Sequence record: PV467749.1
Origin: a phage
Length of the DNA: 64,000 nucleotides
Reading direction: 5' to 3' (one strand)
Part shown: positions 1 through 64,000 of the stretch, piece by piece
Layout of the letters: each line of letters begins with the position of its first letter
Numbering within the stretch: position 1 is the stretch's first letter
Translations under genes and position numbers: made by a program
Notes under the pieces: generated by a model
What the model was told of the DNA's origin: nothing
The model's database searches: none
Seen by the model: only the letters and a program-made list of their open reading frames with translations

Positions 1-210
1 TTTTAAACGAAACTGGTGTCGATAAAACAATACTTGGACGTTCACTTGAATTTAAAATCTTGTACAGTACATAGGCACAAATTGATTCAGAAGAGCCAAC
101 TCTTGGTGGAACTACTGCCACATACGAATTATCAGAATTTTCTAACATTCTTTCAAAGATAGTTGAACTATCATAATTAGTTAATTTATTGAAAGTTATT
201 AAATTGCCCA
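1..210 (-). CDS. possible partial CDS (ATG near 210, runs off window start); hypothetical
   Basis: Open frame for ~70 codons from an ATG at ~208-210 to the window edge; no clear RBS; not in ORF track because incomplete. Confidence 0.25.
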
Positions 211-220
211 TAACAAATAA

Positions 221-250
221 AGGGAAGTACTCGTTAAAGTACTCCCCATT
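221..250 (-). terminator. putative intrinsic terminator downstream of gene 255..740
   Basis: Imperfect hairpin GGGGAGTACTT-TAACG-AGTACTTCCC (minus strand) followed by TTTATTTGTT. Confidence 0.45.
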
Positions 251-254
251 CTCC

Positions 255-740
255 TTACAAGTTTTTCTGTTGATACGTTAGTTCCATAAATGTTTTGTAT
301 GGACCATAGATATCATCTTTATGATTGTCATACGTATCAGTACTTATAGTACAACGAGGATTGTATACCCCACTTTCTGATTTAACAAGCCACCAGCCAG
401 GGAAGAAGCGTTTCTTAGATTTTTCACTCTTACGGAAAGTACTAATACCGTTATCGCCTTCTTGTACATCATAAACACTATCAGTATCGTTAACTGGATA
501 GTCACCAATAAATTTAGTATTGGTGTCTTTGACTTGTACTTCCTCATACTTGAATGGTGTTCCAAGTAACTCTTCCAATTCAGTTATTGAATCAAATTTC
601 AGTACACCATCACTAGTGAAGAATTCCACCCCACTATACTCAGTGGGGCTTTTGCTGTGGTCAATAAGTATTCCAATCTTTTCAGAACCATCAGATTCTG
701 CTATATAAGAATACTCAGTTAGTTTTTTTAGTACTGCCAT
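255..740 (-). CDS. hypothetical protein (161 aa)
   Basis: Complete ORF with ATG start; start abuts the stop of the upstream RNase H gene. Confidence 0.7.
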
Positions 741-741
741 A

Positions 742-1728
742 TCAAATATCCTTTTTGGTGAATAGTTTCACGTATGCTTCAGGTGAACGTTGAACGTGAA
801 CTAAATCATATTTCGCTGCGAAACGTAAAAAATGCACACCAATCATAGGAGTACTTTTTGGTTCACGATTGAAAATAACATCATCCATCATTTCAATGAT
901 TTCCTGTGGTTGCTTAGTTAAGTCAACTAAGATCTGATTATGAGCATATGCATCTTTAACAGAAACTTCAACACCATCATGACGTGTCCACTTGTGATTC
1001 ATGAATGAGTTCCATGCATAACCACGAGTATGGCGATCATTGAATGCTTCTTCAATACCAACAGCTTTCTTTGTACTTTTCATACGAGCACCAGGATAAG
1101 CACTGAATACGTTATCTGATGTATCACCTTTGATGCACTTCTGGAATAGCAAGAACTCAGGGTTAGGTGTTTCAATCGGATTACCTTTCTTATCTTCTGC
1201 TGGGTTATTGTTCTTATCAAATACACCAGTAGTAGTATACATCATTTCTTGTACTGGGTTGTACTGACGAACATTGAAAGCTAGTAGTTGACGGAAGTCG
1301 GTGTCAGTACTGACAATGATATGATCATCTTCTGGATGAGTTTGAATCCAACGAGCGATAAAATCATCGGCCTCTGCTGATGGAGCACGTAGTAAAGTAC
1401 TGTTAGTTTGATTATCAACGAAGTCAATGAAATCGTTAATCATTTCAAACATTACTTCCATTTCTTCTTTCTCTTCTTTAGAACGACCTGCCGCTTTTAC
1501 TGCACGATTGCGTTTGTAATCTTCGTCGAATTTTTTACGCCAGGACTTACCTTCTGCACAAAAAACTACATGGTGTGGGTCGAACATTTCTTGTAGTTTC
1601 TTTAATCCACTCAAAGTGATGTGAAGTGCAAGACCTACCTTGGTCCAGATATCAATACTTTGAGAAGAAACGTTAATACTACGGTGGAAACAGTTTTGAG
1701 TATCAACAAGTAGATATAATTTTTTCAT
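742..1728 (-). CDS. rnh: RNase H / 5'-3' flap exonuclease (T4 rnh-like, FEN-1 family)
   Basis: Motifs [28 protein letters not shown] align with T4 RNase H (EADDHIAVL, IISSDGDFTQL, KGDKKDNV); start moved to in-frame ATG (MKKLYLL) with AAAGGA RBS; track start is an upstream alternative codon. Confidence 0.85.
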
Positions 1729-1787
1729 CGTAAAATCCTTTTCTCGGTGAACGTGTGTTGCATGTAAAAAACTCCATTTTCGTTGAT

Positions 1788-61394: not shown

Positions 61395-61408
61395 AGGAGA
61401 TTATAAAA

Positions 61409-61444
61409 ATGGCAGTTTTTTCTAATTTAGAAGGAACCATGAAG
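61409..61444 (+). repeat. direct repeat (copy 2) covering start of next fiber gene
   Basis: atggcagttttttctaatttagaaggaaccatga. Confidence 0.75.
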
Positions 61445-62308
61445 AAGACCTTCATACTTGGTAAAAATGGTGCACAAATTGCCACTAATGGTAATGTTGT
61501 TCAAATCCAGAACTACACGGGTACACAACTTCTTCCTGTTTCAGCAGGTGACCCAACCGCAAATACACACTTGGTTACATTGGGTTATTTGAATACACAT
61601 AGCGGTGGCGGTGGTGGTTCCGGTATTTTACGTGGAACTATTGCACCATCTGAATCAATCGGTGTAGATGGTGACGCTTACTTCTTAGTTGACAGTACTA
61701 ATATTATTCAGATCTATATTAAAGACCTTGGTGTTTGGAAGCCTCTCCAAAGCACAACTCCAGGTACTGATAGTTCTTACGTTACTACTGAAATCGTTCC
61801 TGTATCGGCATTTACATTAGTTCCTGGAACAACTGATCAATATACTTATTCTTTACCTGAATCAGTACATGGTCGTGGACCAGATATTATGGTTCAGCTA
61901 CAGGGTGATCCTGGTAACATCCCACTTGACACTGTATTCCAAACTAACGTCACTGTGAGTGGTATTGGTGACATTACGATTGATGTTATTGGTCAAATCA
62001 CTGAATATACAAGTGTCAAAGTCAACATCATAGGAGCAACAACAATGACAGTACCTTATAGTAAATTAATTAATATAGCAGATTGGGTAGCATCTGGTGA
62101 TGATTACACCATTACTGTTCCAGCGTCAGAACATAACCAAACACCTGACAATTTGTATATTTCTATATATTCAAATAAAACACCAGGCAGTACAGCAGCA
62201 TCACCATTTGAACTGGTAATAACCGAAACTCAAATTGATGCAAGTGGTAATGTTACATTTACTTCTGACGAAGCGTTTAGTGGTAAAATAGTAATTTCCG
62301 GTAAATAA
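61409..62308 (+). CDS. tail fiber/spike protein sharing the N-terminal anchor module
   Basis: N-terminus MAVFSNLEGTMKKTFILGKNGA near-identical to 59253 gene at DNA level for about 34 nt; AAGGAG RBS; terminator downstream. Confidence 0.8.
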   Translation: MAVFSNLEGTMKKTFILGKNGAQIATNGNVVQIQNYTGTQLLPVSAGDPTANTHLVTLGYLNTHSGGGGGSGILRGTIAPSESIGVDGDAYFLVDSTNIIQIYIKDLGVWKPLQSTTPGTDSSYVTTEIVPVSAFTLVPGTTDQYTYSLPESVHGRGPDIMVQLQGDPGNIPLDTVFQTNVTVSGIGDITIDVIGQITEYTSVKVNIIGATTMTVPYSKLINIADWVASGDDYTITVPASEHNQTPDNLYISIYSNKTPGSTAASPFELVITETQIDASGNVTFTSDEAFSGKIVISGK

Positions 62309-62315
62309 AAAAAAT

Positions 62316-62350
62316 AGTCCAGACTATGATTCATCTAGTCTGGATTTTTT
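62316..62350 (+). terminator. intrinsic terminator after fiber gene 61409..62308
   Basis: TCCAGACTA-TGATTCATC-TAGTCTGGA followed by TTTTTT. Confidence 0.8.
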
Positions 62351-62426
62351 ATATCAATAACTAAATATATGTATATTAACAAGGTCAAATGTATTTTATG
62401 CTTTTTGCCTATTTGGAGGGAACTAA

Positions 62427-64000
62427 ATGTACTCGATTAAAACAGATCTCGATATAACTGGTGGTGCAACGGTTGCTAAAGATCTTCTTGTGAAAGGCGA
62501 TGCAGTATTCAATAAAAATCTAACAGTTAATGGAACTGTAACTTTTGCTGACGCTGTATTCACTGCAATTGAAGCAGAAACTGTAGACATTTCATCTACA
62601 CTAGATGTTGCTGGTAAAGCATCATTGAATGGTGGAATTGAAGTTCATGGTAATTCCGTAATTGGTAATTTGCCTGTTGGTTCTGATACTGCAACGATTA
62701 ATTCCAATGCACAATTCCAAAGCCCAGTATCAATGGCAGGTAACCTAACACAAACCGCTGGCACTGCTGTACTAAAAGATACCCAAGTGGCATCAATGGA
62801 TGTTCTTGGAACTTCTTCATTTAAAGGTAATATTACTGCTGAAACTGGCACTACCGCAGCATTTGACAAAATAACTGCAACTGATGCAACATTCACAAAC
62901 ACTGCAACTACTGATATCACATCAACTGGAACTGCAAACTTTAAAGATGTGAATATTTCCGGTACACTAGGTGGAACATTTAGTCTATCTGATGTTAATG
63001 CAACAACTCTAACTGTTTCTGGTTTAACCAGTCTACAAGGTGGTGTTACATTAGGTTCCAACATTACTGGTGTGAATAGTAGTGCAAACTTCCGTGATAT
63101 TAAAATTGGTTCCAATGCTGCAAACACTAACTACCGTTTGAGCTTTAACTATTCTGCTCCAAGTCTTCGTCCAACTGTAATTCTACAGAACGAAATCCAA
63201 TCAGAATTGATGTCTCCAGCTACCCTAAGTGTATTGAAAACTGCATCTTTTGGTGATTCGTCACTATCCACTTTTGGTATTACTGGTAATGGTCTAAACA
63301 AACTAGATTACCTAACAGTATCTGGTAACTCTGTTCAAGATCCAACAACTCCACTATTACAAGTAACTTCAGGTAAAACTAAAGTTCATGATTTCGAAGT
63401 AACAGGAACTGCAACTATTCCTAACATTGAAAGTACTGGTACTGCTAATTTTAATAACATCAACGTATCTGGTACACTCGGTGGTACTTTCAGTCTTGAT
63501 GATATTGAAGCAAACACTCTAACTGTTTCTGGATTAACTAGCCTTGTTGGTGGTGTAACTTTAGGTGCTGATATTTCCGGTGCTAATAGTACTGCTAATT
63601 TTAAAGCAGTAAGTTTAGGACAAAACGCAGCCGATGCTAACGTTAAGTATGGTTTTGCTTATTCTGCCCCTGGTGCTCGCCCAACTGTAATTCTACAAAA
63701 TGAAATTCAGTCTGAGCTAGTATCTCCAGCAGTACTTAATGTACAAAAAACTGCAACCTTTGGTGATGCATCTCTTGCAACCTATGGTATCACAGGTAAC
63801 GGTCTAAACAAACTAGATTATCTATCTATTACTGGTAATGGTACACAAAGTCCAGCTACCCCACAACTACAAGTTGCTGGTAAATCAGTACTAAATGATG
63901 TTGAATTCACTGGTACTGTAACTGGTCTAACTGTTGATGTAAGTGGGCAAGACCTAACTCCTAAATCAGTAGTTGCTGCTGAAGCAATCAAAGGTCAAAC
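62427..64000 (+). CDS. long repetitive tail fiber protein (3'-truncated by window end)
   Basis: ATG with GGAGGG RBS; open to window end; Thr/Gly/Asn/Val-rich with two ~150-aa internal tandem repeats; absent from ORF track because incomplete. Confidence 0.7.
   Translation, partial: MYSIKTDLDITGGATVAKDLLVKGDAVFNKNLTVNGTVTFADAVFTAIEAETVDISSTLDVAGKASLNGGIEVHGNSVIGNLPVGSDTATINSNAQFQSPVSMAGNLTQTAGTAVLKDTQVASMDVLGTSSFKGNITAETGTTAAFDKITATDATFTNTATTDITSTGTANFKDVNISGTLGGTFSLSDVNATTLTVSGLTSLQGGVTLGSNITGVNSSANFRDIKIGSNAANTNYRLSFNYSAPSLRPTVILQNEIQSELMSPATLSVLKTASFGDSSLSTFGITGNGLNKLDYLTVSGNSVQDPTTPLLQVTSGKTKVHDFEVTGTATIPNIESTGTANFNNINVSGTLGGTFSLDDIEANTLTVSGLTSLVGGVTLGADISGANSTANFKAVSLGQNAADANVKYGFAYSAPGARPTVILQNEIQSELVSPAVLNVQKTATFGDASLATYGITGNGLNKLDYLSITGNGTQSPATPQLQVAGKSVLNDVEFTGTVTGLTVDVSGQDLTPKSVVAAEAIKGQ
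62931..63890 (+). repeat. in-frame tandem duplication (two units of about 450-510 nt) inside the terminal fiber gene
   Basis: Protein repeats TGTANFKDVNISGTLGGTFSLSDVNATTLTVSGLTSL... and TGTANFNNINVSGTLGGTFSLDDIEANTLTVSGLTSL...; DNA segment ggtctaaacaaactagatta recurs about 510 nt apart. Confidence 0.75.

Follow-up and report, generated by a model that had tools for sequence, protein, structure and literature searches.

AGTACT, an iterated palindrome dispersed through a lineage of jumbo phages and fixed in their early promoters

The window analyzed here is the stretch of 64,000 nucleotides formed by positions 1-64,000 of the phage sequence record PV467749.1 (GC content 36.5%), and the most frequent of the 4,096 hexamers in it is the palindrome AGTACT, the ScaI site, of which it holds exactly 132 copies. 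Broadly, the results presented below show that AGTACT is a lineage-specific palindrome maintained by selection at the DNA level, evenly dispersed and fixed in early promoters. The window is 98-99% identical to the 350-385 kb Escherichia jumbo myoviruses fEgEco12, Turkey3 and vB_Ec-M-J, ~86% identical to phAPEC6, 121Q and PBECO4, and ~76% identical in conserved genes to RaK2, GAP32, CBB, XbC2, Serratia BF and Yersinia fHe-Yen9-04; judged by these identities, it belongs to a RaK2-like jumbo myovirus, in a clade for which the genera Asteriusvirus, Mimasvirus and Alcyoneusvirus have been named. The 51 open reading frames (ORFs) called in the window make up 95.5% of its length and include, with identities taken via the phAPEC6 annotation, genes for the DNA polymerase, capsid, portal, gp46/47, late sigma factor and baseplate. 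For genome-wide counts, 344 kb of fEgEco12 (PP777464.1) were read. The termini of this phage have been confirmed experimentally, and ten restriction enzymes (ScaI not in the set) cut its DNA as predicted in silico (PMC13070987); from these ten digests, its DNA carries no global base modification.

The 132 copies compare with 21.7 expected from base composition, and with 20.2, 32.5 and 52.2 expected under Markov models of order 1, 2 and 3, respectively; across the window and the fEgEco12 genome, the enrichment over composition is 6-9x. A first-pass annotation of this DNA, based on a hand count, had described AGTACT as over-represented, and the excess proves stronger than it reported. In the first 8.4 kb, its tally of about 16 copies was too low, the exact figure being 24 against ~2.8 expected, and the excess itself holds; the three copies that it had placed within 5650..5700 start at 5658, 5675 and 5688, and the core GTAC, which it had also thought enriched, occurs 377 times against 215 expected. 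The next most frequent hexamers of the window, GTACTG (87) and CAGTAC (86), are both extensions of AGTACT, and the pentamers AGTAC and GTACT number 201 and 210. The extended word CAGTACTG is found 30 times, against 0.7 expected at order 0 or 3.8 at order 3. The sites are the following:

Positions 1 to 64000, no strand assigned: AGTACT array of 132 sites, 126 in ORFs and 6 non-coding, with a mean spacing of 486 bp and a largest gap of 1,738 bp.
AGTACT starts, part 1: 226, 238, 339, 438, 730, 850, 1306, 1396, 2173, 3083, 3533, 3712, 4170, 4244, 5070, 5658, 5675, 5688, 6480, 7001, 7312, 7573, 7728, 8356, 8955, 9912.
AGTACT starts, part 2: 10621, 11033, 11555, 11766, 11781, 11925, 12013, 12528, 12711, 12861, 14535, 15476, 16907, 17043, 17210, 17789, 18149, 18452, 18896, 19646.
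AGTACT starts, part 3: 20280, 20564, 20838, 21044, 22217, 22360, 23480, 23522, 23615, 24598, 24885, 25759, 26246, 26821, 28302, 29230, 29284, 29861.
AGTACT starts, part 4: 30256, 30476, 30806, 30869, 32499, 32595, 32613, 33138, 33369, 34711, 35538, 36437, 36769, 36977, 37658, 38279, 38444, 38615, 38908, 39785, 39872.
AGTACT starts, part 5: 41137, 41377, 41449, 41634, 42537, 42664, 43105, 44011, 44628, 44983, 45382, 45442, 45772, 46569, 46579, 46790, 47279, 48055, 48569, 49138, 49551.
AGTACT starts, part 6: 50570, 50609, 51163, 52223, 52988, 53283, 53537, 53957, 54802, 55311, 56325, 56393, 57258, 57324, 57363, 57843, 58369, 58411, 58642, 59970.
AGTACT starts, part 7: 60747, 61694, 63432, 63588, 63731, 63887.

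A codon-aware null was obtained by shuffling synonymous codons within each of the 51 ORFs (500 shuffles), a procedure that keeps both the proteins and the codon usage of each gene. It gave 33.1 ± 5.3 coding copies of AGTACT (at most 49 in the 500 shuffles) against the 126 observed (z = 17.7), a 3.8-fold excess by exact count and thus beyond the 2-fold band around a codon-aware expectation within which the first-pass annotation would have taken its observation to be refuted. This null is conservative, because the codon pool that it draws on already includes the AGT and ACT codons derived from the motif. Every reading frame is in excess (74, 15 and 37 copies observed, 22.6, 2.8 and 7.8 after shuffling), and the density is equal in plus-strand genes (1.98 per kb), minus-strand genes (2.16 per kb) and non-coding DNA (6 sites in 2,857 bp), so that the earlier description of the word as present in several frames and on both strands is confirmed. 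Placement along genes is uniform (Kolmogorov-Smirnov p=0.33). AGT and ACT are the preferred serine and threonine codons in the window, and the Ser-Thr dipeptide is barely enriched (127 vs 108); it is written AGTACT in 74 of its 127 occurrences, 22 being expected, and the converse dipeptide, Thr-Ser, under-uses ACTAGT (9 vs 18.7 expected). Furthermore, GTACTG encodes Val-Leu 19 times where 2.0 would be expected, and this takes a quarter of all the rare CTG leucine codons.

The surroundings of the palindrome are themselves symmetric. In the window, the base at −1 is C in 46% of the sites and G in 6%, the base at +1 is G in 43%, and the profile is the same whichever strand codes; weaker preferences for T-T and A-A outward extend the motif to 12 bp, (T)TC·AGTACT·GA(A). 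All parts of fEgEco12 show a similar profile (C at −1 in 41-51% of the sites, G in 4-8%), its flank combinations being CAGTACTG (206), AAGTACTT (72), TAGTACTA (42) and GAGTACTC (6). Codon, dipeptide or composition bias was discarded as the source of the excess on the strength of the synonymous shuffle, a codon permutation, an excess that spans all frames and the recourse to the rare CTG codon; these results, together with flanks that are symmetric independently of the strand, are why the dinucleotide or codon bias that the first-pass annotation offered as one of its two readings is rejected. A Chi-like recombination or protection signal was set aside too, as such a signal is an asymmetric, orientation-dependent word and AGTACT, a palindrome with symmetric flanks, cannot be oriented. 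Neither does the window bear the mark of a VSP-like (very-short-patch) deamination and short-patch-repair bias, since the transition neighbours AGTATT and AATACT are not depleted (82 vs ~75 expected). Two other one-mismatch neighbours, AGGACT and AGTCCT, occur only 2 and 0 times in the window, with ~12.5 expected each, and the remaining neighbours are unlike them. Spacing is more even than in a Poisson process, with a variance/mean ratio of 0.50 in 2-kb bins (p=0.009), a largest gap of 1,738 bp vs 2,617 simulated (p=0.014) and a coefficient of variation of 0.82 (p=0.011).

The trait extends to the whole clade. Syntenic 50-kb stretches of clade members were compared, six clade phages from the three named genera being sampled, and AGTACT is the commonest hexamer in all of them, 5.3-7.0x enriched at ~2 sites per kb:

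phAPEC6: 91 AGTACT, 5.3x.
GAP32: 106 AGTACT, 6.2x.
RaK2: 96 AGTACT, 5.6x.
CBB: 116 AGTACT, 6.8x.
XbC2: 117 AGTACT, 7.0x.
Outgroup Atu_ph07 (capsid 58% identical): 3 AGTACT against 13.7 expected.
Outgroup XacN1: 0 AGTACT against 12.6 expected.
Outgroup RB32 (T4-like): 5 AGTACT against 13.8 expected.
Outgroup phi-ST2 (KVP40-like): 12 AGTACT against 12.7 expected.
Outgroup PA5oct: 4 AGTACT against 17 expected.

The outgroups are without the excess, and therefore the trait tracks the phage lineage and not the host; in fact, the Xanthomonas phages are split, XacN1 being without the trait and XbC2 with it, and the Pseudomonas phage PA5oct is also without it. Escherichia coli K-12 has 3 copies in a 50-kb sample vs 11.6 expected, i.e., ~0.06 per kb vs ~3 per kb in the phage, a difference of ~50-fold. 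Taking any aligned hexamer as control, which is not frame-matched, 57% of the sites are conserved vs a 40% baseline at 85% identity (phAPEC6; p=5e-4), and 28-30% vs 17.6% in distant relatives at ~71% identity (p=0.005-0.02). Most single sites turn over between relatives and the density stays near 2 per kb, which argues that selection is still acting, and more on whether sites are present than on exactly where they lie.

Along the 344 kb of fEgEco12 AGTACT occurs 1059 times vs 123 expected, with 1.8-3 copies per kb over most of the genome and all gaps between copies of at most 1,976 bp outside two islands that are described further on. Its direct terminal repeat of ~21 kb is about 3-fold more concentrated (27-41 copies per 5 kb, ~7 per kb), with 11 per kb in non-coding DNA and 4.5 per kb in ORFs. 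The small early genes of this repeat number in the dozens, and each has a sigma70-type promoter close to the consensus, in which AGTACT abuts or overlaps the −35 element (AGTACTTGCAA, AGTACTTGACA, AGTACTATTGACA) or lies one base 5' of the −10 element (AGTACTGTATAAT, AGTACTTTATAAT), both positions often being filled, for example in the early promoters at 4414-4450 and 9070-9105. Counted as AGTACT start relative to TATAAT, the offsets are distributed as follows:

fEgEco12 terminal repeat: 44 TATAAT; AGTACT at −7 in 13, at −27 to −29 in 21 (19 exactly at −27).
CBB terminal repeat: 30 TATAAT; AGTACT at −7 in 16, at −27 to −29 in 15.
RaK2 early region: 73 TATAAT; AGTACT at −7 in 11, at −27 to −29 in 8.

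Outside early regions these offsets are almost never filled. Pairs of AGTACT show a spacing peak at 20-22 bp, about two helical turns (RaK2 has 18 pairs at exactly 20 bp), and the design is common to three genera; as the sequence around and between the promoter elements differs among them, the elements themselves are conserved. A dyad-symmetric site at a fixed place over or between −35 and −10, as expected of an operator, is thus found in fEgEco12, CBB and RaK2. The CBB paper reports "RpoD-like promoters preceded by an UP-like element" and does not remark on the palindrome, and in the literature on these phages we found no description of the AGTACT excess, of a ScaI pairing or of the dual-AGTACT promoter design; what is new here is an iterated palindrome in a palindrome-purging virus, placed both in promoters and inside genes. 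The suggestion of the first-pass annotation that AGTACT sits in intergenic promoters is right for the early sigma70-type promoters of the terminal repeat, outside the window, and does not extend to late promoters, the overlap in CAGTACTATAAATA being a single case, found once, at 34710. A late-promoter element was likewise dismissed: AGTACT adjoins one of nine TATAAATA boxes, with no association.

These data also bear on the possibility that AGTACT has no function and is a by-product of codon or dipeptide usage, of neighbour-dependent mutation or repair bias, or of palindrome purging. The preferred codons AGT and ACT, the order-4 Markov expectation of 112 copies, near the 132 observed, and the turnover of most sites speak in its favour. 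Nonetheless, it has to face a 3.8-fold excess over the synonymous shuffle in all frames and with a rare codon, symmetric flanks, an intergenic density equal to that of coding DNA, sites conserved above baseline, transition neighbours that are not depleted, promoter positions fixed in three genera while their surroundings diverge, and nearest outgroups that deplete the word; we give it next to no credence. The second reading of the first-pass annotation, a functional DNA motif, gains accordingly from the density kept throughout the clade, from site conservation and from the fixed early-promoter positions, and it is from these that we infer a function for AGTACT.

As to the nature of this function, we tentatively propose, with confidence somewhat short of even, that AGTACT is the core of a site, roughly TTC·AGTACT·GAA, for a putative clade-specific dimeric protein that binds double-stranded DNA and that would be phage-encoded or virion-borne. 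The two sites of an early promoter, 20-21 bp apart, would present the same face of the helix and bracket −35 and −10; once occupied, they would exclude RNA polymerase and shut off pre-early transcription, in the manner of an operator-bound repressor. With ~1,000 further sites dispersed along it, the DNA of the phage would also be marked or coated by this protein, giving an unmodified genome a way to tell self from host by sequence, the purpose of the coating (protection, compaction or recruitment) being a matter of speculation. Early-promoter operators and early shut-off proteins are exemplified by SPO1 TF1, which acts on early promoters of the terminal redundancy, by phi29 p6 and by lambda-type operators. 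The arrangement described here resembles them in that the sites lie over the −35 and −10 of strong host-type early promoters in a terminal repeat, and in pairs about two helical turns apart, as in cooperative repressor binding. Classical operators, on the other hand, occur in small numbers and only in control regions, TF1 and p6 are loosely sequence-specific, and TF1 depends on hydroxymethyluracil; we know of no classical operator, nor of a role of TF1 or p6, associated with an in-gene hexamer of ~1,000 copies.

Two stretches of fEgEco12 just inside the terminal repeat, 20,857-26,616 and 29,016-37,647, do without the palindrome. Within the second, the coding strand of 29,020-37,311 (~8.3 kb, ~22 small early-region genes) has no ACT in any frame, with 105-129 expected, and AGT is normal (219); threonine is encoded by ACT 3 times vs 87 for ACA. 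The edges of this ACT-free block are sharp, and AGTACA occurs in it 46 times vs 3 expected, in all frames and in unrelated contexts, all 46 of which differ, which discards a paralogue artefact. The same block is present in the independently sequenced 121Q (7,511 bp, 4,359-11,870 of the sampled stretch) and phAPEC6 (7,626 bp, 4,225-11,851 of the sampled stretch), at ~82% identity across phages; an assembly artefact is thereby excluded, and the block is real and under strong selection. No such block was seen in the other scanned sequences, including the early region of RaK2, and the PHROGs that its proteins match all lack an assigned function. Most simply read, the block once had AGTACT at the usual density, and the word became AGTACA when one strand lost its ACT; candidate causes of the loss are escape from an ACU-specific RNase and a strand-specific DNA process. 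Such a history implies that a strand-specific reader, of RNA or of single-stranded DNA, also acts in these phages. Such conversion means, besides, that whatever selects AGTACT can be overridden and that the palindrome is not locally essential. As for the first stretch, 20,857-26,616 has one AGTACT in 5.8 kb, an array of overlapping ORFs of ~70 amino acids and ordinary ACT and AGT contents; it shows few GTAC, mostly as TGTACT (9), the reverse complement of the variant found in the ACT-free block.

The block brings in a signal at the RNA level, AGUACU or ACU being read in transcripts by an endoribonuclease or an RNA-binding protein, and a palindrome would put the word into RNA whichever strand is transcribed. 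An ACT-free stretch in which AGT is normal, kept in 121Q and phAPEC6 despite ~17% divergence, is the escape pattern that a trinucleotide-specific mRNA nuclease would leave, and AGTACT is densest in the pre-early region, where the mRNAs have to be shut off. Yet an RNA reader does not require flanks that are symmetric relative to the coding strand, transcription starts downstream of the promoter copies at −7 and −27, a 4-fold enriched cleavage site in late structural genes would be costly, and coding and non-coding densities are equal in the window. Taken as the explanation of AGTACT, an RNA signal is therefore highly unlikely.

Several observations weigh against a dimeric double-strand reader. 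The order-4 Markov expectation of 112 is near the observed count, as the excess is already present in the pentamers AGTAC and GTACT; this expectation is high because it is conditioned on two pentamers that are enriched mainly through lying inside AGTACT. The evenness statistics are just moderately significant inside the window. The stretches of fEgEco12 between 20.9 and 26.6 kb and between 29.0 and 37.6 kb do without AGTACT, which is thus not locally essential there, and the strand-specific purging of ACT points to a single-strand reader that a double-strand binding model does not predict. A DNA-binding Pfam domain was not found in 10 terminal-repeat proteins and 3 annotated 'transcriptional regulators'. 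Finally, a role as operator leaves the ~1,000 in-gene sites unaccounted for, and the coating or marking role that would cover them is conjecture.

The dispersion of the sites invites a different explanation, namely that the T4-type primase of these phages (fEgEco12 g384, next to helicase g385) prefers 5'-AGTACT-3' as start site. The 3' T would be cryptic and the pentamer pppGUACU made, the palindrome would serve whichever strand lags, and selection would keep one AGTACT per Okazaki-sized interval. The pentaribonucleotide primers of T4 gp61 are begun at 5'-GTT or 5'-GCT, the 3' T being cryptic (PMC10359460), so that a hexamer ending in CT has the right form beside 5'-GCT, a resemblance that is formal only (PMC10359460). 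More generally, the sites of the T4 and T7 primases (5'-GTT/GCT and 5'-GTC) share with AGTACT the short word, the cryptic 3' base with a primer of 4-5 nt, and the need for sites at Okazaki-scale intervals on either strand (PMC10359460). The even spacing, with no gap >2 kb in ~330 kb, the presence of AGTACT on both strands, in all frames and equally in coding and non-coding DNA, a clade-specificity such as co-evolution with one enzyme would produce, and the ACT-free block, where a strand-specific trinucleotide ending in T is under selection, all fit this proposal. It leaves unexplained, however, the fixed early-promoter positions, the pairs at 20-21 bp and the 3-fold density of the terminal repeat. 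An enzyme that recognizes a trinucleotide meets a site every ~50 nt even when its word is not enriched, ACT and AGT show no excess beyond that of the hexamer, and an 8-kb stretch without ACT on one strand replicates regardless; moreover, the T4 and T7 primase sites are trinucleotides needing no enrichment, and there is no report of one that forms an over-represented palindrome or belongs to a promoter. We consider a primase site unlikely, while granting it some weight.

A comparable, small share of our confidence goes to a methylation target, in which AGTACT, or the GTAC at its core, would be the substrate of a phage methyltransferase, the state of parental vs new DNA tuning the early promoters and/or a methyl-directed process creating and maintaining the sites. 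The closest described phenomenon is HIP1 (GCGATCGC), an iterated palindrome of cyanobacteria that has been linked to orphan methyltransferases and whose function is unresolved after decades (PMC4390886, PMC5861425). As with HIP1, AGTACT is a hyper-abundant short palindrome found within and between ORFs in all frames, non-randomly distributed and conserved between related genomes above control motifs, and in its abundance, its all-frame and intergenic presence and its conservation above controls AGTACT behaves as a HIP1-type element; the deamination or short-patch-repair variant pattern of such elements was not seen for AGTACT in the window. Nonetheless, HIP1 belongs to cellular genomes and not to a virus, is GC-rich, 8 bp long and 15-300x enriched (6-9x for AGTACT), and is tied to cognate orphan methyltransferases, no cognate enzyme having been found for AGTACT; no fixed promoter position has been reported for it, and AGTACT is under-represented in the genome of the phage's host.

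Other points in favour of methylation are that two methyltransferases are encoded by the phage, one acting on cytosine C5 (g455, PF00145) and one on adenine, of Dam type (g162, PF05869), that AGTACT lies within −35/−10 regions, where methylation can alter promoter strength, and that a ScaI site so abundant in a palindrome-purging genome would be safest if protected. However, an AGTACT-specific methyltransferase was not found among the annotations, which hold only these Dcm-like C5 and Dam-type enzymes: outside the clade, the closest relatives of g455 carry Dcm-like annotations, g162 is of Dam type, and an N4-cytosine enzyme of the M.ScaI class is not among the annotated genes of the phage, most of which have no assigned function. 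The two enzymes are also patchy in the clade, with orthologues (≥60% identity) in ~52-54 records vs ~87 clade records recognized by capsid protein, and a VSP-repair signature is lacking (82 vs ~75, as above). Besides these, fEgEco12 g271 (16,992-17,336 of the sampled piece) is annotated as 'SAM hydrolase', with no Pfam match at E<0.01; if the annotation is right, it would bear on methylation-based explanations.

The reader could also be a conserved host protein, the nucleoid-occlusion factor SlmA or another gamma-proteobacterial regulator, recruited or titrated by the phage. Pre-early promoters work before phage expression, so a host reader is conceivable, and all hosts are gamma-proteobacteria; apart from SlmA, we know of no host factor with an AGTACT-type site. 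The SlmA site GTGAGTACTCAC does have an AGTACT core (PMC3020112). SlmA, however, needs G, T and a purine at positions 1-3, followed by A-G-Y in a 12-bp palindrome, whereas the phage motif has T, T, C at positions 1-3 and disfavours G; the 344 kb contain no match to GTRAGYRCTYAC, and no flank combination is rarer than GAGTACTC (6 vs 206 for CAGTACTG). AGTACT as an SlmA-binding sequence was thus discarded, the consensus being absent and the flanks wrong (PMC3020112). As the trait follows the phage lineage and not the host (XacN1 and PA5oct without it, XbC2 with it), host proteins in general are also a very poor prospect, marginally poorer than an RNA signal. LexA boxes were excluded by reasoning: CAGTACTG holds both SOS half-sites, but these need a spacing of 18 bp and the observed peak is at 20-22 bp. 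More broadly, the SlmA-SBS, Noc-NBS and MatP-matS systems resemble the proposed dimeric reader in using palindromes of 12-14 bp, read by dimers and scattered in coding DNA, which mark a replicon or domain rather than single genes, the SBS sharing the AGTACT core (PMC3020112). They differ in having tens of sites per several megabases, outside promoters, whereas AGTACT, at ~3 per kb, is 100- to 1,000-fold denser and is also built into promoters, with the SBS flanks absent (0 matches).

The depletion of palindromes that the first-pass annotation had called usual in phages is strongly true here. In the window, GCGC is absent (71 expected), GATC is reduced to 0.42x, and of the 64 palindromic hexamers 26 do not occur; in fEgEco12, there is no GCGC in 344 kb (364 expected). 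The sampled DNA of all clade phages, whatever their host, is devoid of GCGC, which is normal in Atu_ph07, RB32, phi-ST2 and PA5oct and reaches ~7 per kb in E. coli. The likeness to restriction-site avoidance in phages is therefore extreme, with GCGC and many palindromic hexamers absent, and the difference is that AGTACT, a ScaI site, is enriched 6-9x instead of purged; that the same genome purges other palindromes makes its excess the more remarkable. The GCGC void could reflect restriction avoidance, or immunity to a phage-encoded nuclease directed against host DNA. Taken together, the AGTACT excess and the GCGC void might be two halves of one sequence-coded system of self and non-self, an idea that we regard as decidedly unlikely. 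In such a system, a phage protein would nucleate on AGTACT and coat the genome, silencing the pre-early promoters as it accumulates, and the coat would shield or earmark phage DNA; the GCGC-free phage would be immune to its own nuclease while this shreds host DNA, in a functional equivalent of the hydroxymethyl-cytosine of T4. The ACT-free block would then mark transcripts, or a strand, escaping a third, single-strand-specific component.

If a dedicated reader exists, a clade of 350-kb phages, several of them studied for therapy, would carry a genome-wide cis-code of ~1,000 copies; finding the reader would be finding the off-switch of the pre-early genes, and could show discrimination between self and host DNA without modified bases. 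It would also provide a small, fast and tractable genetic model for the long-unsolved highly iterated palindromes (HIP1). From the practical point of view, the dual-AGTACT promoters are a ready family of strong, possibly switchable promoters, and AGTACT density is a simple metagenome signature for clade members.

Within the window, the following features concern individual sites or genes without them:

222 to 247, minus strand: two AGTACT 12 bp apart, arms of an imperfect inverted repeat GGGAAGTACT…AAGTACTCCCC, between minus-strand ORFs (ends 211 and 255).
5658 to 5693, minus strand: three-site cluster (5658, 5675, 5688) in a 303-bp ORF, 5420-5722, with 9.9 sites per kb.
8955 to 8960, no strand assigned: intergenic site between the DNA polymerase gene (5875-8880) and the next ORF.
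15476 to 15481, no strand assigned: intergenic site between a scaffold-like ORF (14345-15460) and the prohead protease ORF (15527-16147).
17043 to 17048, no strand assigned: intergenic site between an ORF ending at 17006 and an ORF starting at 17095.
34710 to 34723, plus strand: CAGTACTATAAATA, in which AGTACT and a T4-type late promoter box, TATAAATA, overlap upstream of the ORF that starts at 34741, the single such case in the window.
13079 to 14254, minus strand: major capsid protein gene, with 0 AGTACT in 1,176 bp, ~2.4 being expected at window density, which alone is not significant.

By its sequence, the inverted repeat at 222..247 looks like a putative terminator hairpin, and the CBB paper lists a similar terminator, AGTACTGGTGAAATATCCAGTACTgTTTTT. 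The prohead protease gene (15527-16147) also has 0 AGTACT in its 621 bp, with ~2 per kb elsewhere, which alone is not significant; it and the major capsid gene are presumably the most highly expressed late genes.

Some further traits of the fEgEco12 genome deserve mention. All annotated genes from 1 to ~144 kb from the left terminus lie on one strand, a layout as expected for directional entry or for early expression from the left end. The non-coding left end (1-1,700) holds 17 AGTACT in 1.7 kb, many as the 12-bp palindrome TTCAGTACTGAA, and a duplicated unit, gattcAGTACTgaataatAGTACTcctatatag, lies at 1546-1630, just upstream of the first gene. A conserved stem-loop, G-rich/C-rich, is found between −10 and the ribosome-binding site and would start most early transcripts, examples being ggggagaaatgattctcccc in fEgEco12 (2150-2200, 9060-9105) and ggggatacatagtgtatccc in RaK2 (upstream of 6879 and 12326 in the sampled stretch); it looks like a shared element of the 5' untranslated region. 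Among the 168 octamers that share its composition, the E. coli Chi octamer GCTGGTGG ranks first in fEgEco12, with 36 copies on both strands vs 10-17 under Markov orders 3-6 and ~2.4 from composition, an excess that is partly codon-driven, because GGTGCTGG occurs 31 times. Ten of the Chi copies lie in one orientation inside the terminal repeat, and those of the window are at 390, 6345, 19281 and 59772.

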